Shown one piece after another: positions 1 to 41,666 of a stretch of 41,666 bases of DNA. Numbering within the stretch: position 1 is the stretch's first letter; the number at the start of each line of letters is the position of its first letter. The DNA is from a virus (lineage: Duplodnaviria; Heunggongvirae; Uroviricota; Caudoviricetes). Both the position numbers and the translations under genes were made by a program. Location of the stretch: IMG/VR virus record IMGVR_UViG_2526164631_000048, positions 1 to 41,666 of that record. One strand, written 5' to 3'. The notes under the pieces were generated by a model. The model was not told where the DNA came from. It was given only the letters and a program-made list of their open reading frames with translations, and did not search any database.

Positions 1-540
1 ATGAATCCGTTTAACGCCATTACTTTTGCTGCATTGTGCGGGCCTCTGGTTTGTCCTGCTGCTATGGCGCAGGAGTTCATCATCCAGCCAGCCCCTGTGA
101 TTGCTAAACCTTTTGAGTACTCTCCCTCTGTTGAGGAATTCTCACGCAAAATGGAAGAGGGTAAGGAGATCTTGCAAAAGTTAACAATTGCAGCAGATGA
201 CTACTATATCTGTTTGATTGATCTTAATAGCCAAGATGCTCGCGAGTTTGTTTCCAAAAACGGGACAGATACGACAGAGGCATGCGAAATGTTCCTGCGT
301 GCTTTTGAAGAAGAAGTGAAGCGTACAATTGAATCGCCTCTGCCTGAATTTATCAGGTCAGAACTGAAGGTTTACTGGCGTCATATTGCTAAAGCTCGCT
401 CATCTGTCACTCGCCTTAACAATTACATAAAGAGCATATTTAAAGAAACTGTTACTTTTAGCGGGCGCGCGGATCTTGCTGGAATTGCAGCACTAGCTAG
501 TCACACATCAAATAAGCTAAAATCGATGCAATTTCACTAA
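1..540 (+). CDS. Hypothetical protein with N-terminal hydrophobic segment; upstream partner of YafO-like toxin (possibly N-terminally truncated by window edge)
   Basis: ORF open from base 1; 16 bp gap to downstream toxin gene; AT-rich; no family recognised. Confidence 0.4.
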   Translation: MNPFNAITFAALCGPLVCPAAMAQEFIIQPAPVIAKPFEYSPSVEEFSRKMEEGKEILQKLTIAADDYYICLIDLNSQDAREFVSKNGTDTTEACEMFLRAFEEEVKRTIESPLPEFIRSELKVYWRHIAKARSSVTRLNNYIKSIFKETVTFSGRADLAGIAALASHTSNKLKSMQFH

Positions 541-556
541 CCGATAGCGGACGACC

Positions 557-991
557 ATGCATCTAGAAGTCTCTATTAATCCAGAAACTAGAGCTGAATT
601 TTTTGATGAAGTTTTTCTCAAATTCCCAGAGCTAGAGTCTTCTATCATTGATGATTTCAAGAGATACAAAGCAACCGGTGAGCTTCCGCATTATTTCGGT
701 AGGGACGTTGCGTATACTCAGCCTTATGGTGCTTTTCGGGCTGGGTTGATGCATATCCATCTTTGTCTACCGCCAAACAAGTTTCCCGAGAAACTTCCAC
801 AACCGGATAGGGTCTGCAAGAAAGGTGATCCTGATAATGATGCTTGTCTTGTGTATGTCCAAGGTGAGCTTTATGAGAATAAATATTCACTCATTGCTAT
901 TATGTATCCCGATGCACATGAAAAAGCAAGAAAACATGATGTGATGAGCTATCTGGCGCGAATTGCCCAGAATTATAAAGATGAAAACTAA
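557..991 (+). CDS. YafO-family toxin-like protein (ribosome-dependent mRNA interferase family)
   Basis: 144 aa; motifs FGRD..Y, HIHL, LVY.QG, LIAI..P..H.KAR align with my recollection of E. coli YafO; followed by terminator. Confidence 0.5.
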   Translation: MHLEVSINPETRAEFFDEVFLKFPELESSIIDDFKRYKATGELPHYFGRDVAYTQPYGAFRAGLMHIHLCLPPNKFPEKLPQPDRVCKKGDPDNDACLVYVQGELYENKYSLIAIMYPDAHEKARKHDVMSYLARIAQNYKDEN

Positions 992-1012
992 CCCGCCGAA
1001 GCGGGTTTTTTG
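992..1012 (+). terminator. Rho-independent terminator (cccgc-cgaa-gcggg + T6), probably bidirectional
   Basis: GC hairpin 992..1005 followed by TTTTTT; lies between convergent genes. Confidence 0.6.
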
Positions 1013-1017
1013 TGAGA

Positions 1018-1290
1018 TTAGTTATTTATTTTCCTATTTGTTCTTACCCTCTCCCATTCAATTCTGCCTTCTTCACGCCGTTTATCTATATATTCAGCAA
1101 GATCCTGAATGTTGATGCAGCGCTTTGCTTTCTGTGATGTACCAACACGATAAGTCGGGATCGGCAACTGGCATGCATTTGCTTTCGCTTCTGCTGTGTT
1201 AGGGCTCATACCGAAATACTTTTGGCATACAGCTGACAGCTCAATGTTTGGGGTATTGAATTCAGCCATCAGTAAAAACAAGGTGTTCAT
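1018..1290 (-). CDS. PrtN-family (pyocin activator-like) regulatory protein
   Basis: N-terminus MNTLFLLMAEF resembles PrtN MNTLFLLMAQY; GGAG RBS before ATG at 1290; ORF track start 1317 is GTG. Confidence 0.5.
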   Translation of the reverse strand: MNTLFLLMAEFNTPNIELSAVCQKYFGMSPNTAEAKANACQLPIPTYRVGTSQKAKRCINIQDLAEYIDKRREEGRIEWERVRTNRKINN

Positions 1291-1326
1291 AATTTTCTCC
1301 ATCAAAACCGGCTGCACCCGGGAAAA

Positions 1327-1902
1327 TCATAATTCTGTGCTGGTGGCAGGAATTAATTTCTGCCAGATAGCGGAAACATATTTTGCCTGATGACGGGCAT
1401 CAGCCAGGGCGTTGTGCCGGTCGCCATCGAAAGGCATGTCCATTTTGGGGTCGAATCCGATGGAACGCCCAAGCGTAACGATCGTGCGTACATCGTGGTC
1501 ATTCCAGTACGCCCACGGGCAGATTTGTCCTGCTCGCTCGTAAGCTCCACGTAAAATTACGTTGTCGAAGGTGGCCCCGTTACCCCAGACTTTTAAATAT
1601 TTCGTATTGTCTGCGTGCCGGTTAATGAAATGATTTAGTTCTGAGAGAGCATCGCTGATCGACAAAGTATCATCAATACAGATTGCAGCTCGTGCTTCAG
1701 GGCTTTGTTTCAACCACCACAGGATGGTATCGCCGTCAGGTGTAGCTCCTTGCCCCATAGCACTTTCCAGGCTAACAACCGTATAGAATTCTTGTCCGAT
1801 GTCTCCGGTTTCTGGAGTGAAGAACACCGCGCCAATGGAAACGATCGGTGCATCCTTATTTTTCCCCATCGTCTCAAGGTCGATCATTAAGTTGTTCATC
1901 AC
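1327..1902 (-). CDS. DnaQ-like 3'-5' exonuclease (DEDD family)
   Basis: 191 aa; MIDLETMG Exo I motif near N-terminus; H..ALADA near C-terminus. Confidence 0.7.
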   Translation of the reverse strand: MMNNLMIDLETMGKNKDAPIVSIGAVFFTPETGDIGQEFYTVVSLESAMGQGATPDGDTILWWLKQSPEARAAICIDDTLSISDALSELNHFINRHADNTKYLKVWGNGATFDNVILRGAYERAGQICPWAYWNDHDVRTIVTLGRSIGFDPKMDMPFDGDRHNALADARHQAKYVSAIWQKLIPATSTEL

Positions 1903-2450
1903 TTCACCTCCTGCGGCGGTTCCGGTAGCGGCATCCAGTGAGTTGCTTGCTCAATACCATTACCCGGCTTAATCGTTGCATCTCCGCGCCGAAAGGTGCT
2001 TCCGGTATAGCGTGCGGAGCATATTAGCGGTTCAACCAGAGAGCTATCGAAATTCACCGAAATAAGCACGTTCTGGCCCTTTTCAGGCATTCGATCACTA
2101 CAGATTATCCAACTATCCGGAGTTCCCGGAGAGTTGCCATTTACATCGAAGTTTGGCTCTGCGTCCTGAACCAGGAGGATGTAACCATTCTTGGCTGTAT
2201 CAAGTTCTAACGCCTCGGTGACGGTGCCGAAATAGCGATTACCTAAATCAGCATCACAAGTGCTTACATCAATGGAAACTTCCATGCCTTCGATTAATTC
2301 TGGCAAGTTGTAAGTTTGGCTTATAGGCTCTGCTTCCAGCGATGCCAGTGCAATTTCATAAGCACGGCGCTCAATATTGTCTCGAACGTCCAGGCCGCCT
2401 ATGCGCTCTTTGATTTCTTTAATCAGTTCTTTGTCGGTAAAAGTGGTCAT
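1899..2450 (-). CDS. DUF551-domain phage protein
   Basis: 183 aa; C-terminal W.PLPEPP-type motif; overlaps neighbours by 4 nt. Confidence 0.55.
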   Translation of the reverse strand: MTTFTDKELIKEIKERIGGLDVRDNIERRAYEIALASLEAEPISQTYNLPELIEGMEVSIDVSTCDADLGNRYFGTVTEALELDTAKNGYILLVQDAEPNFDVNGNSPGTPDSWIICSDRMPEKGQNVLISVNFDSSLVEPLICSARYTGSTFRRGDATIKPGNGIEQATHWMPLPEPPQEVK

Positions 2451-2812
2451 GCTGTAGCCCCTTCTTGATATTTTTCAAACCAGAACACAACCGGGTCAGA
2501 TTTCATTTCAACCAATCCCATACGAACCAGCGCCTTGCCTTTCCCGGACGCAAGGAATTCACGACGACCATCACTGATAATTCGCCGATAATCTTCCAGG
2601 CTACTGCAATGCTTGTGCAGATTGCATGGGTGGCATGCCGGAACCATGTTGGATATATCGTCACGTTCCTGGTGAAGCATATTTCCAGCAAAACGAATGA
2701 CCGGTTTTACATGGTCTGCATGCCACTTTTCGCCAAGTTCGCAGCCGCAATAAGCGCAGCGACCACCGAACTTCATGCGCAGTTCTGCACGTTGTTTTTT
2801 CGTCAGTGCCAT
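2447..2812 (-). CDS. HNH endonuclease
   Basis: CAYCG..H.DH..P and CHPCN motifs; AAGGAAAG RBS before ATG at 2812 (ORF track extends to 2902). Confidence 0.7.
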   Translation of the reverse strand: MALTKKQRAELRMKFGGRCAYCGCELGEKWHADHVKPVIRFAGNMLHQERDDISNMVPACHPCNLHKHCSSLEDYRRIISDGRREFLASGKGKALVRMGLVEMKSDPVVFWFEKYQEGATA

Positions 2813-2813
2813 A

Positions 2814-3032
2814 TCAGCTTTCCTTATATGGATTAATTTTATTGTGCAGTGTGTTGAACGACGCCCATACCACGTCGTTATACAATTCAATAACTGGCTC
2901 AATTATTTTCCCGATTGCCCATACCAGAATTAACGGGGATATCGGTATCATCAACACGATAAACAGAATGAGAAACAAAAATTCTGTCGCTCTACTTCTT
3001 CGCGGATATTCTTTTCTGAATAATGTCGGCAT
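2814..3032 (-). CDS. Small hydrophobic (membrane) protein, 72 aa
   Basis: ATG at 3032 preceded by AAGGAGAG RBS; central hydrophobic stretch FLFLILFIVLMIPISPLILVWAIG. Confidence 0.4.
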   Translation of the reverse strand: MPTLFRKEYPRRSRATEFLFLILFIVLMIPISPLILVWAIGKIIEPVIELYNDVVWASFNTLHNKINPYKES

Positions 3033-3033
3033 A

Positions 3034-3225
3034 TCACTCTCCTTTAGTGCGCAAGTGGTTTTCCCAGCGGTTTTGCGCCGCGCTGGGCTTATCTTTGACT
3101 CCCTCTCTGGCAATTCCAGAATATAAGTACAACACCACACGGCGATTGCTAACTCTCAACCACTGGCAGGGATAGCAACGTCTGTATACACGGGAAATAA
3201 GCATCTTTGCTTTACGGTTTTTCAT
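3034..3225 (-). CDS. Small basic protein, 63 aa (paralog of upstream ORF)
   Basis: Starts MKNRKAK; ATGA stop/start overlap with upstream ORF; Arg/Lys-rich. Confidence 0.35.
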   Translation of the reverse strand: MKNRKAKMLISRVYRRCYPCQWLRVSNRRVVLYLYSGIAREGVKDKPSAAQNRWENHLRTKGE

Positions 3226-3398
3226 CTTACTGCGTACCCTTTCTTTCGCCTGTTCTGTGACGCTGTAGGCTTACGCTTTGCGGCAAAAGCCACCTGACCA
3301 AATGGATGGAGTACTGCTATCTTATGGTTGCTGATAACCAGCTCCACCACACGCACAGGTCGCTGTAAAAAAAGTCGTTTTGCTTTACGGTTTTTCAT
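3222..3398 (-). CDS. Small basic protein, 58 aa (paralog of downstream ORF)
   Basis: Starts MKNRKAK; AGGAGAG RBS 7 nt upstream; shares 20-nt 5' sequence and K-P-x-A-x-Q-N-R motif with 3034..3225. Confidence 0.35.
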   Translation of the reverse strand: MKNRKAKRLFLQRPVRVVELVISNHKIAVLHPFGQVAFAAKRKPTASQNRRKKGYAVR

Positions 3399-3570
3399 CG
3401 TTTTGCTCTCCTGCGTTTCTTTGCTGCACGTCGTGCAGCTGCAATACCGGTATGGCGGTGCTTTGGTGCCGGGATGATGTTGTCAGCCATCAGGACATGT
3501 GGCTTTGCAATTAGCGCAGAAGCCCAAAAACGAGTCGGGTACGGTAACAAGTCGATACATGCCACACGCA

Positions 3571-4200
3571 TTACTCACCTTCTTTGATGCGAATGCCAGC
3601 GGCGCGTGGCACATTAACTTCCACGATGCGCACAGTTGGTTTGTACATCTCAATCGCTGTCAGCCAGTCAGCGCCGGTCATATGCTTTTCTGCATCGCCA
3701 TTAGTCCATTGAACCGGCACACCAATAGCTTTCATCGCAATTTCTATTTCCCCGGCAATGGCGCTTTTCCCGCAACCAGTAAAACCAGAGACAACGACAA
3801 GAACTTCGCCTTTGGCTGGTTTTATTTCCCGTGCTTCCAGTTCTGCTATGCGCTTCTCTGCGGCTTCCAGCTTGGCTTCTGCATCTTTGGCTCGCATCTG
3901 CCAGTTGATAGCGATGTCGATAACGCTGTTAGCACAACTGGACTCGTTCTCTTCGGCAGCTTTAGCTTCAGAAAGCTCATCAAGCAATCCAAGAACAACA
4001 GTTGGCGTGGCGAGCGTGATAAAACGCATATTGCTCATATGCTCTTCATCGCTGACCTCATCTCCAGCCTCGACCGCTGCCATGTGCTGAACATAGCCGC
4101 TATCACAGGTATTCCAGATTGCCCCTGCCTCGTAACCCCATTCACCATGTAGTGCTTTTTCTGCCGCCTCACGCAGTGCCTGGTAATTAATTTCGCTCAC
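3571..4200 (-). CDS. Ead/Ea22-like protein
   Basis: 209 aa; coiled-coil AEAKLEAAEKRIAELEA; typical position in lambdoid early-left region. Confidence 0.55.
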   Translation of the reverse strand: MSEINYQALREAAEKALHGEWGYEAGAIWNTCDSGYVQHMAAVEAGDEVSDEEHMSNMRFITLATPTVVLGLLDELSEAKAAEENESSCANSVIDIAINWQMRAKDAEAKLEAAEKRIAELEAREIKPAKGEVLVVVSGFTGCGKSAIAGEIEIAMKAIGVPVQWTNGDAEKHMTGADWLTAIEMYKPTVRIVEVNVPRAAGIRIKEGE

Positions 4201-4889
4201 TGACAGCCTCCTTTGCGAAGCTCTGCAGCGAAATATACAGCTGCGGAAACAATAGCTGCATGTCGGTATTCACCATCAGAAAAGAGAGAATCTCCCTTAA
4301 GTGCATTGACGATACTCTGATGATTTTTTGCCAGCATCTCCACACCCTGCGCCCGTACTTCAGCCAGGAAAGCATCTGTAGCCGGGGTTTGCGGCATACC
4401 TCCGTCTGTTGCGCAGATATACGCATCAGATAGTTCATCCTGCTCGCCATCAAACACGTAGCAACTCTGTGCGATAAATTTATTTAGCCCCGCATTCTCC
4501 GCCGCCAGCGCCGCGCAATTACCCTCCAGCTCTGCAATGCGCTGTTTTGCAGCATCAAGTTCAATCGATAATTTTTCCAACTGCTCTTTATGCTTCTTGT
4601 ATTCCTGATATGCGTGCCAGGACTGACCTTTGCGCACACTATCAGTAATATCAGTAATCTGTTCTGGTGTTAGCGTGGTCAGTGGCTGTGCTGGGAAAAT
4701 CAGCACTTTCCCGGAATCCCAATCAAAACCAGCGTGAATTGACTGAACCTCAACTGAGGGTGTTGAACCAATGCTGCCAGGCGAATGAACAACGATCGTT
4801 ACATCCATATCGCGACGATGGCTGTGGTTGTTGGACAAAATACGATTCACCAACTCAGAAAATTTGGAGAATTTCATGCGGAGCCTCAA
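4197..4889 (-). CDS. Ead/Ea22-like protein (paralog)
   Basis: Coiled-coil AKQRIAELE; shares a near-identical ~50-aa block with 5293..5877. Confidence 0.55.
   Translation of the reverse strand: MRLRMKFSKFSELVNRILSNNHSHRRDMDVTIVVHSPGSIGSTPSVEVQSIHAGFDWDSGKVLIFPAQPLTTLTPEQITDITDSVRKGQSWHAYQEYKKHKEQLEKLSIELDAAKQRIAELEGNCAALAAENAGLNKFIAQSCYVFDGEQDELSDAYICATDGGMPQTPATDAFLAEVRAQGVEMLAKNHQSIVNALKGDSLFSDGEYRHAAIVSAAVYFAAELRKGGCQ
4371..4518. repeat. Direct repeat copy A (~150 bp, near-identical to 5538..5697)
   Basis: Long identical runs seen directly, e.g. gcgcagatatacgcatcagatag...gccccgcattctccgccgccagcgccgcgca. Confidence 0.8.
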
Positions 4890-5296
4890 TATGCAAAATA
4901 GACCGTTGCCACGCCGTTATAGTGATCAAACGATACGGCGTTTACTTCATAGCTGGCAGGGAGCTTCGAGCCGAGAACATATCCGGGCCACGTTTTCCAT
5001 GGAATTTCTCTACTCTCACTACCCCCATATACCGTACATCCAAGTGAACCTACAGCCTCGTCAGAACGTTTGCCGCATGTTATGAAACCTATATTTTTCT
5101 TGCTGGTCTTAATGGCGATTGGGTGAACACTGGCTGATGCATTGGCAGCACGCTGTGACTGTTGGTTTGCGATATTCGCAGAGTTCGCAGCAGCTACAGC
5201 AGCCATGGTCGCGGCGGTAGATGCCACAATAACTGCTGAAGCCTGCGCCTGTTGGGTAATGGTCAGCAATGCCGCCACAAAAATCATCTTCTTCAC
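4886..5296 (-). CDS. Secreted/periplasmic hypothetical protein with Ala/Ser/Asn/Gln-rich linker
   Basis: GTG start with AAGGAG RBS; signal-peptide-like MKKMIFVAALLTITQQAQA; two Cys in C-terminal part. Confidence 0.45.
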   Translation of the reverse strand: MKKMIFVAALLTITQQAQASAVIVASTAATMAAVAAANSANIANQQSQRAANASASVHPIAIKTSKKNIGFITCGKRSDEAVGSLGCTVYGGSESREIPWKTWPGYVLGSKLPASYEVNAVSFDHYNGVATVYFAY

Positions 5297-10865: not shown

Positions 10866-11094
10866 TCCGTTGAGCCTCAATATTCGCCGTTTACTTCAGC
10901 GTAAAAAAACATCAATTCCTACAGTTGGGCAGTGGTACACCACGCCTGCAGGGCATGTTCTACGTGTTAGCCTGGTTGACCGTGAATGCCAGAAGGTGAT
11001 TTGTGAACCGCTGGGCCGTAATTACCGCGTCAGTATGCCGCTTATAGCCTTTCGCTCCGGAAAAAACATGAAGCATCTCGGAGGTGCAGCATGA
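10858..11094 (+). CDS. DUF4222-like small protein (paralog)
   Basis: WY..P.GHVLRVSLVDRECQKVICEPLGRNYRVSMPL pattern similar to 10178..10357. Confidence 0.45.
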   Translation: MLNPLSLNIRRLLQRKKTSIPTVGQWYTTPAGHVLRVSLVDRECQKVICEPLGRNYRVSMPLIAFRSGKNMKHLGGAA

Positions 11095-11909
11095 GTATGG
11101 AGCTGATGGTTAAAGCGATGAAAATTCGAGTGGGTAATCCATTGCGAAAACTGGTTCTGATCAAGCTGGCTGATAATGCCAGCGATCAGGGTGAGTGCTG
11201 GCCCAGCTATCAGCATATCGCTGATCAGTGCGAGATTAGCAAACGTTCTGTGATGAATCATATTGCGGCCCTCTGTGAGTCCGGGCTGGTAAAAAAAGTC
11301 ACCCGGAAAGGTGAAAAAGGTAACTCAAGTAATATCTATCTCCTTCATCTGGATGGTGCAGGAGATTCACTAGGGGGTAGTGCAAATAATTCACTATCTG
11401 GTGCAGCAAATTCACCAGGTAGTGCAGGAGTTGCACCAGGGGGTAGTGCAGGAGATTCACCCAGAACCAGTCACTCTTTTGAACCAGTCAAAGAACCAGT
11501 CAATGAACCAATAGCTGTTGGTGCATCAGTTGATGAGTCCGTGCGAGTTCGTTCAAACCGACCGGAATACTCTCCGGAGTTTGAGCAGGCATGGCTGGCA
11601 TATCCCAAACGTGCTGGTGGCAATTCAAAATCTGCAGCCTTCAAAGCCTGGAAAGCCCGTTTGAACGAGGGGGTAAACCCCGAAACCATGCTGGAAGGTG
11701 TGAAACGCTACGCGGGCTGGGTATCTGCGATGGGTAACAGCGGCACACAATTTGTGAAACAGGCTGTCACGTTCTTTGGTCCGGATCGTCATTTCGAAGA
11801 ATCCTGGGAAGTTCCTGCGATATCTGCAGCCAGACGCGAGGACCCGTACTTCAAAGCCAGTTACGACAACGTGGACTACAGCCAGATCCCGGCAGGATTC
11901 AGGGGGTGA
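11091..11909 (+). CDS. Replication initiator (O-like; N-terminal winged-helix DNA-binding domain)
   Basis: N-terminal LVLIKLADNASDQGECWPSYQHIADQCEISKRSVMNHIAALCESGLV; internal Gly/Ser/Ala linker encoded by iteron-like repeats. Confidence 0.65.
   Translation: MSMELMVKAMKIRVGNPLRKLVLIKLADNASDQGECWPSYQHIADQCEISKRSVMNHIAALCESGLVKKVTRKGEKGNSSNIYLLHLDGAGDSLGGSANNSLSGAANSPGSAGVAPGGSAGDSPRTSHSFEPVKEPVNEPIAVGASVDESVRVRSNRPEYSPEFEQAWLAYPKRAGGNSKSAAFKAWKARLNEGVNPETMLEGVKRYAGWVSAMGNSGTQFVKQAVTFFGPDRHFEESWEVPAISAARREDPYFKASYDNVDYSQIPAGFRG
11355..11515 (+). repeat. Iteron-like tandem repeats inside the initiator gene (candidate ori)
   Basis: Five imperfect ~20-bp repeats (ggtagtgcaggagattcac-like), then 3 perfect GAACCAGTCA 10-mers plus one degenerate copy. 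Confidence 0.55.
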
Positions 11910-37039: not shown

Positions 37040-37510
37040 ATGCATCGTATAGACACGAAAACCGCGCAGAAGGATAAGTTCGGCGCGGGTAAGAACGGTT
37101 TTACCCGTGGTAACCCCCAGACCGGCACGCCTGCCACCGTTCTGGATGATGACTACTTTGACATGTTGCAGGAAGAACTCTGCAGCGTGGTGGAGGCATC
37201 CGGTGCCAGCCTGGAGAAGGGGCGGCACGATCAGCTTCTTACCGCGCTTCGTGCGCTGCTGTTAAGCCGCAAGAATCCGTTTGGCGATATCAAATCGGAT
37301 GGCACTGTGCAAACGGCTCTCGAAAACCTGGGAATGACAGACATTCTGAATGATAAACAGGATAAAAATGATAATCTGACATCATTGTCGAGCTTAACAG
37401 GAATACCGGATGGGCTGGCATTTTTTACAGGTGCCGGAACAATGGATATGACAGCGCTGACTCAAAATGGCAGGGAAATTTTAAGTAAAAAAACGTATCG
37501 GAAACTCTAA
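37040..37510 (+). CDS. Tail fiber protein, conserved N-terminal part (possibly separated from its C-terminal part by a frame shift at an A7 run)
   Basis: N-terminal [32 protein letters not shown] motif typical of tail fibers; ends at stop 37508..37510 just after A7 (37487..37493). Confidence 0.6.
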
Positions 37511-37545
37511 AATATTTAACACTTGGGGATGGAACAGGAAGGCTT

Positions 37546-38139
37546 TTGGGGGTTCAGGCATTTGGATCATCTGGGACTTATATCAAATCACCTGGTGTAA
37601 CGAAAATTATAGTGGAAGCCGTTGGCGGAGGTGGTGCCAGTGGTAATTTGTCGGCAACTGCATCTGGTAACTGTGGTGTAAGTGCTGCCGGTTCCAACGG
37701 GGCATATGCTAAAGCATTTTTTTATCAGTCTATACCTGAATCCGTGCAAGTAACTATTGGAAGCGGTGGTGTAGCAGGAACAGGACCAGGAGGCTCTGGA
37801 GGTGACGGCGGGAATACAAGCTTTGGTGATTTGCTTGTATGTCCGGGAGGAAGGGGATCAACTCAAGTTCAGCAGGTACCTCCATTTTCAGGGGGAAGTG
37901 CAACAGAAGCACCAATTCCTACAGGGCAAGGGATTCTGTTCCATTCAGTTTCACGATCAAATTTATGTGGGGCACTTGGACTTGGTGATGATCAGGCGAT
38001 TGGCGTTGAAAGTATAACCACTACTATGCTTGGGATATACGGTATTGGCGGGACAGGTAAATACAATAAGGCGTCATCAGGTCCAGCGACAGGAAATAAT
38101 GGAAATCAGGGATATATTCTTGTGTGGGAGTATCAGTAA
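37546..38139 (+). CDS. Gly-rich tail fiber distal/receptor-binding part (frame open from 37489; TTG start at 37546 after AGGAAGG)
   Basis: 197 aa Gly/Ser-rich; lower GC; in a different frame that overlaps the end of 37040..37510. Confidence 0.5.
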   Translation: MGVQAFGSSGTYIKSPGVTKIIVEAVGGGGASGNLSATASGNCGVSAAGSNGAYAKAFFYQSIPESVQVTIGSGGVAGTGPGGSGGDGGNTSFGDLLVCPGGRGSTQVQQVPPFSGGSATEAPIPTGQGILFHSVSRSNLCGALGLGDDQAIGVESITTTMLGIYGIGGTGKYNKASSGPATGNNGNQGYILVWEYQ

Positions 38140-38140
38140 T

Positions 38141-38345
38141 GAGCGATATTTATGCAGTCGTACAAAATGGTGTCGTTACAAATCTTGTTGTATGGGATGG
38201 TAAGTCAGAGTTTAAGTCAGAAAAAGCGGATATAGTTAAATGTGTTGGAGATGTTGGTATTGGCTGGTCATATGACGGTAAAAAATTCATCAAGCCTTCC
38301 TTAAAACCAGATGTAGTTACTCCTCAAGATGAGTTAGTCAGTTAA
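38141..38345 (+). CDS. Small protein after tail fiber (possible fiber assembly chaperone, 68 aa)
   Basis: ATG directly after fiber stop; position typical of Tfa but much shorter. Confidence 0.35.
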
Positions 38346-38756
38346 TTGCTAGTACGCTGGAGATTTTGATAATTTCCAGCGCATTTTTCCTTCTGCAGTA
38401 ATGGATGAAATACCGCGAGTATAATGTTTTTATGCATATGAACCGTTTAAACCAGAGGAATCCTGACGAAATTGGTTATTGCGCCGAGAGTTGTCGGAGG
38501 GGGTGATATAGGTTATCTAATGGAGTAATCATTTTAACATTAATCAGTTTCCCCATGACATCCTCTAAACCCTATATAAACGATTTCCTGCTACTGGCAT
38601 TCAAACGAAATAATTTGAAAGCAATTTAAAGAGTTATTTGTCTAATGTTGGAAGCCGCAGCCACGTCGTATGCAAGAACGTGCTGCGGCTGGCTGGCGAA
38701 CTTTCGATAGTGCGAGTATTGAATGATTTCCAGCCGTTACCGATTTTACGTGTTAA

Positions 38757-39005
38757 TTAGTGAACAAACCACTCGTCAGCAGATTCCCAGGTATCTTTCA
38801 GAGTCTCCTGAACAAAAGTTTTTGCAGAATCCTTATCTGCGGTGCGTGTAACAGAAAGGCCATCGTTGCTGGTGGCTTTTACGATCACCTCTACATCGTC
38901 ATAACGTTTACTGATGCGTCGGGTTAATTCTTCCTTTAACGCATCCACAGCACCGGTTGGCATTTTAGTCATTTTTTCTTTGGCTATGCAGATTTCAATA
39001 CGCAT
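38757..39005 (-). CDS. dinI: DinI-family protein
   Basis: 82 aa; MRIEICIAK...TWESADEWF matches DinI; GAGGGA RBS; two LexA boxes upstream. Confidence 0.8.
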
Positions 39006-39018
39006 AAAAGTCCCTCTA

Positions 39019-39066
39019 TACTGTGTTTGTATACAGTATTATTTTTAACTGTATGGATAAACAGTG
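39019..39066 (-). promoter_or_regulatory. Two tandem LexA (SOS) boxes upstream of the dinI-like gene
   Basis: taCTGTgtttgtatACAGta (39019..39038) and aaCTGTatggataaACAGtg (39047..39066), both CTGT-N8-ACAG. Confidence 0.7.
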
Positions 39067-40164
39067 TCAAGAGGTCTTATTTCTGCTCCTTTGGAGCTCT
39101 TCAAAACGATTATGTAAAGATTTCGGATACAGTTCGGTATATACCTGCCATAGCACGTTTAATGAACGATGCCCTGTAACCTGGGCGACTTCCTCAATAC
39201 TAAAACCAGCCTCAAATAAGCGACTTGCCCCTTCTCTACGCAAATCATGGTATCGCAGATCTTTAATACCTAATTTGCTTCTTACCCTCTGGAATCCCGC
39301 AGTAACAGAAGTGCTGTTATATGGAAAAATGAATTCTGATTTTTTGGGTTGTCGTTGGACGATATCCCAGGCTTCCCCAAGCAAGGCTACTTTCATATGG
39401 TTGCCTTCCTTTTTACGTGGATCTTTCCTGTCTCTTACGAGTATGGATTTTTGTTCCTGATCGAGATCCTCCCATCGTAATCGGCATACTTCACCGATTC
39501 GCATACATGACCACACAGAAAATTTGAGGATATCAACGAACGGAATTTTTGAGCATTTATGTGTAGATCGTTGTTGAAGACCTTCAATGAGCATGTCCAG
39601 TTCATCAGATGCCGGTCTACGATTACGACGATTTGATTTACCAATTAACCCAAGTTTAAGTAGATATGGACGAGCGGCTTTTGCTGGGTTTGATGTGTAA
39701 TTAATTCCATATACAGGTTTGGCAGCATCCAGAACACTGCCAAGATAACTAACATCGTGGCTAACTGTAGCTGGACCTGCACCAGCGTTGTTTCTTAGCC
39801 TGCAATGTTCAATTACGTCATTTTCTGTCAGTTCAGATAGTTTGATCGCGGAGATGTCACTATCCATAAGCAGTTCCAGCACATATCTTTTAGTACGGCC
39901 TGCTTTACCTCCGGCATTTGGGTCATTTAAATATTTGTGTAGTAAGTCACGGACTGTAAGTCCGTCAACTGCATTTGATGATGGAATGCCATATAGATCT
40001 AATTCCATCACTTTCTGTGTGCCCCATGTTTTGGCATGAGCATGTTTAGGGAATGTTTTGCTTTCCCTGTAAGTGATAACACCTTTTTCTTTGATAATCA
40101 CATTACAGCGATAGCGTGGTGTGCCATCGGATTTTAGTCGTTTCTCTATGTTATAGTACGCCAT
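39067..40164 (-). CDS. int: Tyrosine recombinase integrase (dusA-specific integrase type)
   Basis: 365 aa; R...H..LR..Y catalytic signature (HDLRREGAS, LWQVY); divergent from and adjacent to dusA. Confidence 0.85.
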   Translation of the reverse strand: MAYYNIEKRLKSDGTPRYRCNVIIKEKGVITYRESKTFPKHAHAKTWGTQKVMELDLYGIPSSNAVDGLTVRDLLHKYLNDPNAGGKAGRTKRYVLELLMDSDISAIKLSELTENDVIEHCRLRNNAGAGPATVSHDVSYLGSVLDAAKPVYGINYTSNPAKAARPYLLKLGLIGKSNRRNRRPASDELDMLIEGLQQRSTHKCSKIPFVDILKFSVWSCMRIGEVCRLRWEDLDQEQKSILVRDRKDPRKKEGNHMKVALLGEAWDIVQRQPKKSEFIFPYNSTSVTAGFQRVRSKLGIKDLRYHDLRREGASRLFEAGFSIEEVAQVTGHRSLNVLWQVYTELYPKSLHNRFEELQRSRNKTS

Positions 40165-40183
40165 TACACGACCTCGTTATTTC

Positions 40184-40220
40184 GGGTTCCCATAAAACGT
40201 GGGAACCTGTGCGGGAACCT
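40184..40220. repeat. GGGAACC motif cluster: inverted repeat GGGTTCCCA-N7-TGGGAACC plus a direct repeat 12 bp on
   Basis: Seen directly between int start and dusA start. Confidence 0.5.
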
Positions 40221-40252
40221 AACGCGAGAAAAATAGCCTGAAATGTTCAAAA

Positions 40253-41290
40253 ATGCACGATAATCATGAAACACAAAAAATTAATCAAACCAGCGTGATG
40301 CCTGAAAAAACTGGTGTTTACTGGAATTCTCGGTTTAGCATTGCTCCTATGCTCGACTGGACGGACAGACATTGCCGCTATTTCTTGCGTCTGCTTTCCC
40401 GCAATACGTTGCTGTATACCGAAATGGTGACCACAGGGGCGATTATTCACGGTAAAGGTGATTATCTGGCGTACAGTGAAGAAGAACATCCGGTAGCGTT
40501 GCAACTGGGCGGTAGCGATCCGGCGGCGCTGGCGCAGTGTGCAAAGCTGGCAGAAGCGCGCGGATATGATGAGATCAACCTGAATGTCGGCTGCCCGTCT
40601 GACCGGGTGCAGAACGGCATGTTTGGTGCGTGTCTGATGGGTAATGCGCAGCTGGTTGCCGACTGTGTGAAAGCGATGCGCGATGTGGTGTCGATTCCAG
40701 TGACGGTGAAAACGCGTATTGGCATCGATGACCAGGACAGCTATGAATTTCTCTGCGATTTCATCAACACTGTTTCCGGCAAAGGCGAGTGTGAGATGTT
40801 TATCATCCACGCACGTAAAGCCTGGCTTTCGGGGTTAAGCCCGAAAGAAAACCGTGAAATCCCGCCGCTCGATTATCCGCGTGTGTATCAACTGAAGCGT
40901 GACTTTCCGCATCTGACAATGTCGATTAACGGTGGTATCAAGTCGCTGGAAGAGGCCAAAGCACACCTGCAACATATGGATGGCGTGATGGTCGGGCGCG
41001 AGGCGTATCAGAATCCGGGTATTCTGGCGGCAGTAGACCGGGAGATCTTTGGTTCCTCGGATACCGATGCCGATCCGGTGGCGGTAGTGCGCGCCATGTA
41101 TCCGTACATTGAGCGTGAACTCAGCCAGGGGACGTATCTCGGCCATATTACCCGGCATATGTTGGGCTTGTTCCAGGGTATTCCTGGCGCGCGGCAGTGG
41201 CGGCGTTATTTAAGTGAAAATGCCCATAAAGCGGGTGCAGACATTAATGTGCTGGAACACGCGCTCAAACTGGTGGCGGATAAGCGTTAA
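40253..41290 (+). CDS. dusA: tRNA-dihydrouridine synthase A (DusA); start may be ATG 40298 (MPEKTG...)
   Basis: Flavin-dependent Dus motifs ([23 protein letters not shown]); 5' end lies at the prophage junction. Confidence 0.85.
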
Positions 41291-41371
41291 CTTTTCACCA
41301 AAAAGTAGTCAAATTCACCACGCCCTGCGCACCGTCGCGGGGCGTTTTGCTGTTAAATCAATAGATTATTT

Positions 41372-41390
41372 TTGGCATGATTCTTGTAAT
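41372..41390 (+). promoter_or_regulatory. Candidate sigma54 promoter of pspG (TGGCAT-N5-TTGT)
   Basis: -24/-12-like elements ~35 nt upstream of pspG start; pspG is a known sigma54/PspF-dependent gene. Confidence 0.4.
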
Positions 41391-41423
41391 GCCAGCAAGA
41401 GATTTCATATTTGGGAGAGCATC

Positions 41424-41666
41424 ATGCTGGAACTACTTTTTGTGATTGGCTTTTTTGTCATGCTGATGGTCACCGGCGTTTCGTTGCTGGGCATTATCGC
41501 CGCGCTGGTTGTGGCGACGGCCATTATGTTCCTCGGCGGTATGCTGGCATTGATGATTAAGTTGCTGCCGTGGTTACTACTGGCGATTGCGGTGGTGTGG
41601 GTTATTAAGGCGATTAAAGCACCAAAAGTGCCGAAATATCAGCGTTATGACCGCTGGCGTTACTAA
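41424..41666 (+). CDS. pspG: Phage shock protein G
   Basis: 80-aa hydrophobic protein MLELLFVIGFFVMLMVTGV...; ORF track begins at an upstream non-supported start. Confidence 0.8.
   Translation: MLELLFVIGFFVMLMVTGVSLLGIIAALVVATAIMFLGGMLALMIKLLPWLLLAIAVVWVIKAIKAPKVPKYQRYDRWRY

Follow-up and report, generated by a model that had tools for sequence, protein, structure and literature searches.

The questions raised by this locus are where phage DNA stops and host DNA begins beside an integrase gene that is divergent from dusA, a tRNA-modification gene, and what a cluster of GGGAACC repeats is doing between the two genes. The locus lies near one end of a 41,666-nucleotide stretch of virus DNA (IMG/VR record IMGVR_UViG_2526164631_000048, positions 1 to 41,666; the whole stretch is called the window here). 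The integrase gene (int) and dusA are divergent with their starts 88 bp apart, as an original prediction made from the sequence had described, and the coordinates of both genes were confirmed. We consider it likely that the region is the attR of a ~40.6-kb prophage that was put into dusA by a dusA-specific tyrosine integrase (Int), and that the repeats are arm-type sites of this Int. The features on which the argument depends are as follows.

39067-40164, minus strand: int, encoding a 365-aa tyrosine integrase of the dusA-specific (DAI) family (PF00589 match, E = 1e-20)
40165-40252: int-dusA spacer, 88 bp, forming the outer portion of the attP P arm
40253-41290, plus strand: long dusA open reading frame (ORF), 345 aa (TIGR00742 match, E = 6e-175; also NF008774)
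40253-40348, plus strand: phage-borne replacement 5' end of dusA, 96 nt or 32 codons
40349-40356: common core ATGCTCGA, common to attL, attR, attB and attP
40357-41290, plus strand: host-derived rest of dusA, which continues the reading frame of the phage-borne 5' end
1-40356: prophage body in the window, ~40.6 kb, with attL ~205 bp before base 1

The phage/host junction in dusA

Int residues R222, H306, R309, H332 and Y342 were invariant or nearly so among 60 homologues and correspond to the R-H-R-H tetrad and the nucleophilic tyrosine. The protein is 100% identical to the Int of phage 1720a-02, which inserts into dusA, and 98.4% identical to that of phage mEp460. Together with the attR junction described below, the identity to the 1720a-02 protein bears out the predicted dusA-specific integrase arrangement. 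Sequence comprising int plus the spacer was found in 729 of 5426 complete E. coli genomes (~13%), Shiga toxin (Stx) phages included, and Acinetobacter phages were among the tblastn matches.

Alignment of the dusA 5' region to the prophage-free E. coli K-12 gene, which had been proposed as the way to find the att core, located it as ATGCTCGA. Compared with K-12, 18 of the initial 96 nt of dusA differ (19% divergence), as do 9 of the 32 residues that they encode; in the remainder 7 of 942 nt differ (0.7% divergence) and none of the 313 residues. The switch between the two is sharp, falling at 40348/40349 with 40348 as the last phage-specific base. The 88 bp upstream of dusA are unrelated to K-12. 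The dusA 5' end and the DNA ahead of it are thus not those of a prophage-free strain, identity across which would have spoken against a prophage origin. Downstream of dusA the genes pspG, qorA and dnaB follow in the same order as in K-12. When attL, attR, attB (K-12) and attP were aligned, ATGCTCGA was the sole stretch common to all. The suggestion that the dusA 5' end is prophage-derived was upheld, since the same segment is present in the attP of mEp460, but the extent of ~15 codons given for it was too short: 32 codons (96 nt) are of phage origin, and the ~15 codons cover no more than the part of the long ORF ahead of an internal Met16. The range originally delimited, ending at 40340, likewise falls just short of the junction core.

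The other end of the prophage was located in E. coli O111:H2 strain 12A, to which window positions 1-5006 and 40165-40700 are identical. At the far prophage end (locus L004, 5209-5313) this strain carries a displaced, K-12-like dusA 5' remnant that is annotated as a pseudogene, and the attL core of the strain at 5210-5217 is equivalent to window positions -210 to -203, so that the prophage is ~40.6 kb long and occupies window positions 1 to 40356. The two ends carry 21-bp imperfect direct repeats, CCAATGCTCGATAGGATGTAC at attL and CCTATGCTCGACTGGACGGAC at attR, with 16 of 21 positions matching. The overlap is probably the 7 bp TGCTCGA (40350-40356), which in attP sits between the inverted pair TCCTA and TAGGA, the shape expected of a tyrosine-recombinase core. 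These alignments place the crossover inside ATGCTCGA; the resulting dusA owes 32 codons and all the DNA ahead of them to the phage, and the original start is stranded at attL.

A further copy was observed in the 205-kb avian pathogenic E. coli plasmid pEND_Eco 18005 (NZ_CP126947.1; locus L003, 4903-6208), where int, an identical spacer and a dusA-like segment lie in a ParB/RepB partition gene (parB). This insertion is identical to the window through 40352 (the ATGC of the core) and diverges after it, which makes the point where identity ends an independent mark of the end of the phage DNA. By its sequence the plasmid copy looks like a secondary-site integration.

Some observations concern the start of dusA and the other flank of int. 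The DNA round the start of the long dusA ORF (AAAATGCACGAWAAT, window 40245-40266) is conserved in phage-borne copies from many genera (L107-L156) and in the native K-12 dusA, and is better conserved than the codons that follow it. Judged by this conservation it may be a promoter or leader element, in which case the true dusA start could be the internal ATG at 40298 (MPEKT...). Directly downstream of int is a DinI-like gene (38757-39005, minus strand), found in the same place in mEp460, in phage EKP1 and in the plasmid-borne copy; from its presence beside int in several elements, it travels with the integrase module.

Repeats on both arms of attP

The spacer had been predicted to carry an inverted repeat with a 7-nt loop and a further copy 12 bp on; this was confirmed at 40184-40220. 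The P2 and P3 copies start 12 bp apart, one helical turn, and the distance from the int start codon to the three P-arm sites upstream of it is 20-56 bp.

40184-40192, minus strand (inverted): candidate arm-type site P1, GGGTTCCCA, the minus strand reading TGGGAACCC
40193-40199: 7-nt loop TAAAACG between the inverted copies
40200-40207, plus strand: candidate arm-type site P2, TGGGAACC (TGGGAACCT when taken as 40200-40208)
40213-40220, plus strand: candidate arm-type site P3, GGGAACCT (CGGGAACCT when taken as 40212-40220)
P' arm fragment with the far-arm sites: GTGGGAGCCTATTGGGAACC

The far arm was read from free phage mEp460 (JQ182728), the packaged genome of which holds an intact attP; intact attP was also found on two metagenome contigs (L049, L079). 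The order in mEp460 is the int start, a spacer 100% identical to window 40165-40252, the 96-nt dusA-like ORF start, ATGCTCGA, TAGGATGTACCGTTTTTGAAAAACAAATAGTTATATACTTTGTGGGAGCCTATTGGGAACC and then unrelated sequence. Counted from the int start, the int-side copies lie at +32 (inverted), +48 and +60, and the far arm carries GGGAGCC and GGGAACC in direct orientation, 11 bp apart and ~50-60 bp past the core, so that by sequence pattern five GGGAACC-type copies are spread over both arms. The mEp460 far arm matches the phage arm of attL in strain 12A, and homology between mEp460 and the window prophage stops right after the second P' copy. The inverted repeats of the core (TCCTA/TAGGA) are unlike the arm motif. 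A match to the integration host factor (IHF) consensus was located exactly 28 bp past the core start in mEp460, the window's attL, phage YeP1 and EKP1 (four att sequences, three lineages); IHF-like sequences AAACAAnTAGTTA, TATCAGTAAGTTA and AATCAGATAGTTG lie between the core and the P' sites (L005, L116, L117; L004 ~5177-5189, minus strand).

The same layout recurs in related elements, mostly with another motif, and ~ten diverged lineages hold it on both arms. YeP1 of Yersinia (GGGGTGC) and EKP1 (GGTGTAC) match the site positions of mEp460 within 1-2 bp. The Vibrio tailless phage 1F53_PE004 (GGGGTAC) and Marinobacter AS1 (GGAGCAC) also have this layout, and Klebsiella Kp4887-1 has GGGGTGC beside int with GGGGTTC and GGGGTCC on the far arm. 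Phage records from Morganella, Salinivibrio, Pseudoalteromonas and Shewanella were fetched later as a check of the layout. In Morganella IME1369_02 (GGTGTCC), Salinivibrio SMHB1 (GGGAGAC) and Pseudoalteromonas ACA1 (GGGTGAC) the int-proximal motif recurs as a tandem pair on the other arm, some of the far-arm copies being degenerate; in Shewanella M16-3 (GGGGCAC) the layout holds only loosely, with copies 21 bp apart.

An alignment-based scan of viral contigs returned mostly near-identical loci, and a scan of genome representatives together with individual phage records was more useful. Of the resulting 97 related loci, a set in which 78 species are represented by a single genome each, ~80% had two tandem copies that were spaced 11-12 bp and lay within 15-65 bp of the int start. 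Where a lineage has an inverted copy, it stands at the same position and follows the motif of that lineage. Many further Int homologues, from Xenorhabdus, Serratia, Providencia, Raoultella, Buttiauxella and Enterobacter (L145-L147, L150-L158, L177, L180, L185 and L196), keep the tandem repeats, but a pattern search recognised no dusA N-terminus beside them; they may have a different target or a replacement segment that is longer.

The N-terminal domain of Int and competing explanations

The N-terminal domain of Int comprises roughly residues 1-60. An AlphaFold2 model of the whole protein (predicted local distance difference test score, pLDDT, 86) gave residues 2-58 as three antiparallel beta strands followed by a helix, with pLDDT ~90. 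This beta-beta-beta-alpha order is the topology of the arm-binding domains of lambda Int and Tn916 Int, and full-length lambda Int was among the top Foldseek matches of the whole model. Across the related elements the arm motif tracks residues 25-36 of the N-terminal domain and not the catalytic domain, in the following pairings.

Residues 25-36 KEKGVITYRES: motif GGGAACC
Residues 25-36 GGKYIYREN: motif GGGGTGC
Residues 25-36 GGKHLHRET: motif GGTGTAC
Residues 25-36 GKRIFNES: motif GGTGTCC

Two Xenorhabdus integrases (L131 and L140) are 89.7% identical over residues 70-350, yet carry the N-terminal residues GGKYIYREN and GGKHIHRET, respectively, and their loci have different arm motifs. Conversely, integrases that are 50-55% identical in the catalytic part but have the common signature GKY.(Y/H)RE(N/S) were all found with GGGGTGC. 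The comparative evidence thus backs the view, put forward in the original prediction, that the repeats are candidate integrase or regulator binding sites, and the five repeats are probably arm sites read by the N-terminal domain of Int. With somewhat less assurance, we lean towards a broader reading in which DAIs would be heterobivalent: a swappable N-terminal domain would read lineage-specific arm sites (~ten motif classes) and a conserved catalytic body would target the same dusA core, with modules of N-terminal domain plus arm sites exchanged between near-identical catalytic domains and the int-proximal sites possibly serving autoregulation.

Several observations weigh against the assignment of the repeats to the Int N-terminal domain. 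Fold searches with the isolated domain gave non-specific matches, and a Pfam search with residues 1-196 returned only a weak Int_N match at 72-165 and none within residues 1-60. The int N-terminal codons, the P arm and the PrtN-type gene of the lambdoid members are contiguous in the circular phage, so the co-variation of domain and motif may partly reflect linkage, an argument that is weakened by the P2-like members, in which the Cox genes lie far from attP. Some lineages among the 97 loci are without the inverted copy, and a few loci are without a clear tandem pair. Substitutions in close relatives miss all three motifs, but not significantly so (9 sites; estimated p ~0.09). A simple scan of 39900-40500 for sigma-70 promoters and terminators found no int or dusA promoter, and inspection of the int/dusA region by hand found no convincing promoter hexamers. 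In Escherichia sp. MOD1-EC7003 (L120), the Int of which is 99% identical, both inverted arms have changed together, A to G in each, to give the compensatory pair GGGTCCCCA and TGGGGACC, the third copy still being GGGAACC. This means either that the site tolerates change at position 4 or that pairing is important.

The alternative that survives best is that the repeats bind another protein of the element, a PrtN/Cox-type excision factor or a repressor, as int/dusA operators or as excision-factor sites. The 88-bp spacer must hold the int promoter and 5' untranslated region (UTR), and the repeats sit where these have to be. The PrtN-family gene travels with int across attP, and Kp4887-1 also has a PrtN-like peptide beside its P' sites. 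The PrtN-type proteins of the window and mEp460 are 92% identical, so that co-inheritance of this protein cannot be separated from that of Int and the comparison of the two phages is uninformative as to which of them binds. The distribution of the copies argues the other way, as they stand on both attP arms at lambda-like distances and sites for excision factors are as a rule limited to a single arm. In the P2-like members the two-arm layout persists though the annotated Cox/excisionase genes lie kilobases away, and the motif follows the Int N-terminal residues even between near-identical catalytic domains. Taken together, this alternative is unlikely.

A second alternative has the inverted repeat acting on int expression as an RNA hairpin in the int 5' UTR or as a DNA cruciform, the extra direct copy being incidental. 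An 8-bp stem is present in the minimum-free-energy fold of the int leader, the inverted arms remain complementary across lineages, and the paired change in MOD1-EC7003 is of the kind expected of a stem. The fold energy of the leader is nevertheless ordinary (z = -0.25), and a hairpin accounts neither for the third, direct copy nor for the pair on the opposite arm, which is 40 kb off in the prophage. Members from Klebsiella, Vibrio, Providencia and Raoultella have direct repeats only and form no hairpin. We regard this alternative as very improbable.

A chance origin in an ordinary intergenic spacer, to which the non-trivial 7-mer background lends a little colour (8 GGGAACC copies in the window against 4.2 expected, 7% of shuffles reaching 8), is effectively refuted by the comparative data: equivalent clusters are position-conserved in dozens of diverged loci with lineage-specific sequence, and three copies fall within 36 bp here, where any 7-mer occurring at least three times within 40 bp was seen in only 14% of Markov-simulated 41.7-kb sequences (0.14 per window), a rate that scales to ~3e-4 for one given 88-bp spacer.

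Proposed mechanism, relation to known systems and implications

In the circular phage, attP runs from the int start through three sites of 7-9 bp (one inverted, two direct and 12 bp apart) and the phage copy of the first 96 nt of dusA, after which come the 8-bp core ATGCTCGA, a sequence resembling an IHF site at core +28, and a further pair of direct sites with a spacing of 11 bp. Crossover within the core splits attP; the int-side arm with its dusA-like start joins host dusA in frame, so that a full-length gene is kept, and the original dusA start stays behind as a remnant at the far prophage end. The small N-terminal beta-sheet domain of Int is predicted to bind the GGGAACC arm sites and the rest of Int the core, so that Int would link arm to core in the manner of lambda Int, and the arm sites with an IHF-type bend would assemble the recombination complex. 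The P-arm sites would probably also let Int limit its own expression, a suggestion made because of their position 20-56 bp upstream of the int start and by analogy with P4 Int, which autoregulates via sites overlapping its own promoter.

The candidate excision directionality factor is encoded on the far side of attP.

1018-1290, minus strand: PrtN-family small protein (annotated PrtN family), candidate excision directionality factor

This protein is 92% identical to mEp460_025, and its gene lies across attP from int in the circular phage, as do those of YeP1 and EKP1; in Kp4887-1 a PrtN-like peptide encoded beside the P' sites was read from the sequence. In three P2-like phages of the later check, annotated Cox/excisionase genes are kilobases from attP. 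The IHF-like site and the PrtN-family gene are indications of a bending protein and an excision factor, and the protein encoded at 1018-1290 may tentatively be taken as that factor. Between attL and the PrtN-type gene, window 1-991 holds cargo: a 179-aa ORF (1-540) with an N-terminus that reads as signal-peptide-like, and a YafO-family type II toxin gene (557-991). The mEp460 ORFs in the corresponding position are unrelated, and the genes beside the P' arm thus differ, being the YafO toxin gene and the 179-aa ORF in the window prophage and two other ORFs in mEp460.

The arrangement of int and dusA is already known, is very common and is textbook for the family. The dusA-specific integrases, the replacement of the dusA 5' end and semi-conserved 21-bp direct repeats were defined by Farrugia et al. 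2015 (PMC4482086), with E. coli dusA lysogens given in their Table S1; the elements of that family and the window prophage share a tyrosine recombinase divergent from dusA, an element-supplied 5' end and 21-bp end repeats. In the dusA islands of Durand et al. 2021 (PMC8409611) the recombination directionality factor is encoded across attP from int, as is the candidate excision factor of the window, and the int promoter (Pint) is constitutive. Balasubramanian et al. 2019 (PMC6328086) showed experimentally that the Stx2d phage 1720a-02 (KF030445) integrates 100 bp into dusA, and reported a 7-base core, an in-frame phage dusA' ORF and a 21-bp repeat motif; attP formation was lost upon int deletion, excision needing Int. 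Both 1720a-02 and mEp460 match the window in the spacer and the dusA-like 5' segment, and the rest of the phage genome is mosaic. The arrangement described in the DAI papers is the same as that of the window, but only the 21-bp core repeats are described there. Term searches of the main texts of PMC4482086 and PMC8409611 found no mention of arm-type sites in dusA integrases, and literature searches found none; a paper on an sRNA in which mEp460 is named proved unrelated. The arm-site architecture with lineage-specific motifs appears to be undescribed for the DAI family, and is well supported by the comparison of loci.

The likeness to lambda Int, a comparison that, like that with P4 Int, draws on general knowledge, would consist in the predicted small N-terminal beta-beta-beta-alpha domain, sites on both arms distinct from the core, an IHF-like site between the core and the P' sites, and a small excision factor. 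Several points set the window system apart from lambda: the N-terminal domain shows no detectable sequence relationship to that of lambda Int, Rci is the nearest class for the catalytic domain, int transcription runs away from attP and the int leader contains the candidate arm sites, and the P arm of the prophage carries a functional piece of a host gene. The Rci shufflon recombinase is the closest characterised relative of the DAIs (Farrugia et al. 2015, PMC4482086). The likeness is in the catalytic domain, the mEp460 Int being annotated as INT_Rci (cd00796); the differences are that the window protein is an integrase, that it has an additional N-terminal domain and that phage att arms are present.

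Other observations were made elsewhere in the window. Three copies of GAACCAGTCA spaced 14-15 bp apart, and a degenerate fourth, GAACCAATAG, were seen at 11463-11515 within a 272-aa ORF (11091-11909); they look like replication-origin iterons inside a lambda O-type gene. The 7-mer AAAAGCA occurs three times within 40 bp at 31654-31693, in the tail-gene region. An ungapped comparison of 37165-41666 with strain 12A gave 235 mismatches; since 40165-40700 is identical to 12A, these are probably in the tail-fibre region (~37165-38800), and an indel there, or variability of a tail-fibre segment, could account for them. Close to the tail-fibre genes of the plasmid-borne copy is a gene for an invertase-type recombinase.

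This analysis sets the exact phage/host boundary at 40349-40356, with 32 phage-derived codons in the resulting dusA, and the defined five-site architecture of attP should help in designing minimal att sites and in predicting where prophages end. The pairing of N-terminal domain residues with arm sites can be tested across many natural variants that have one chromosomal target. If the heterobivalent reading is true, the family would provide integrases that are orthogonal by nature and directed to a single conserved site in bacteria.

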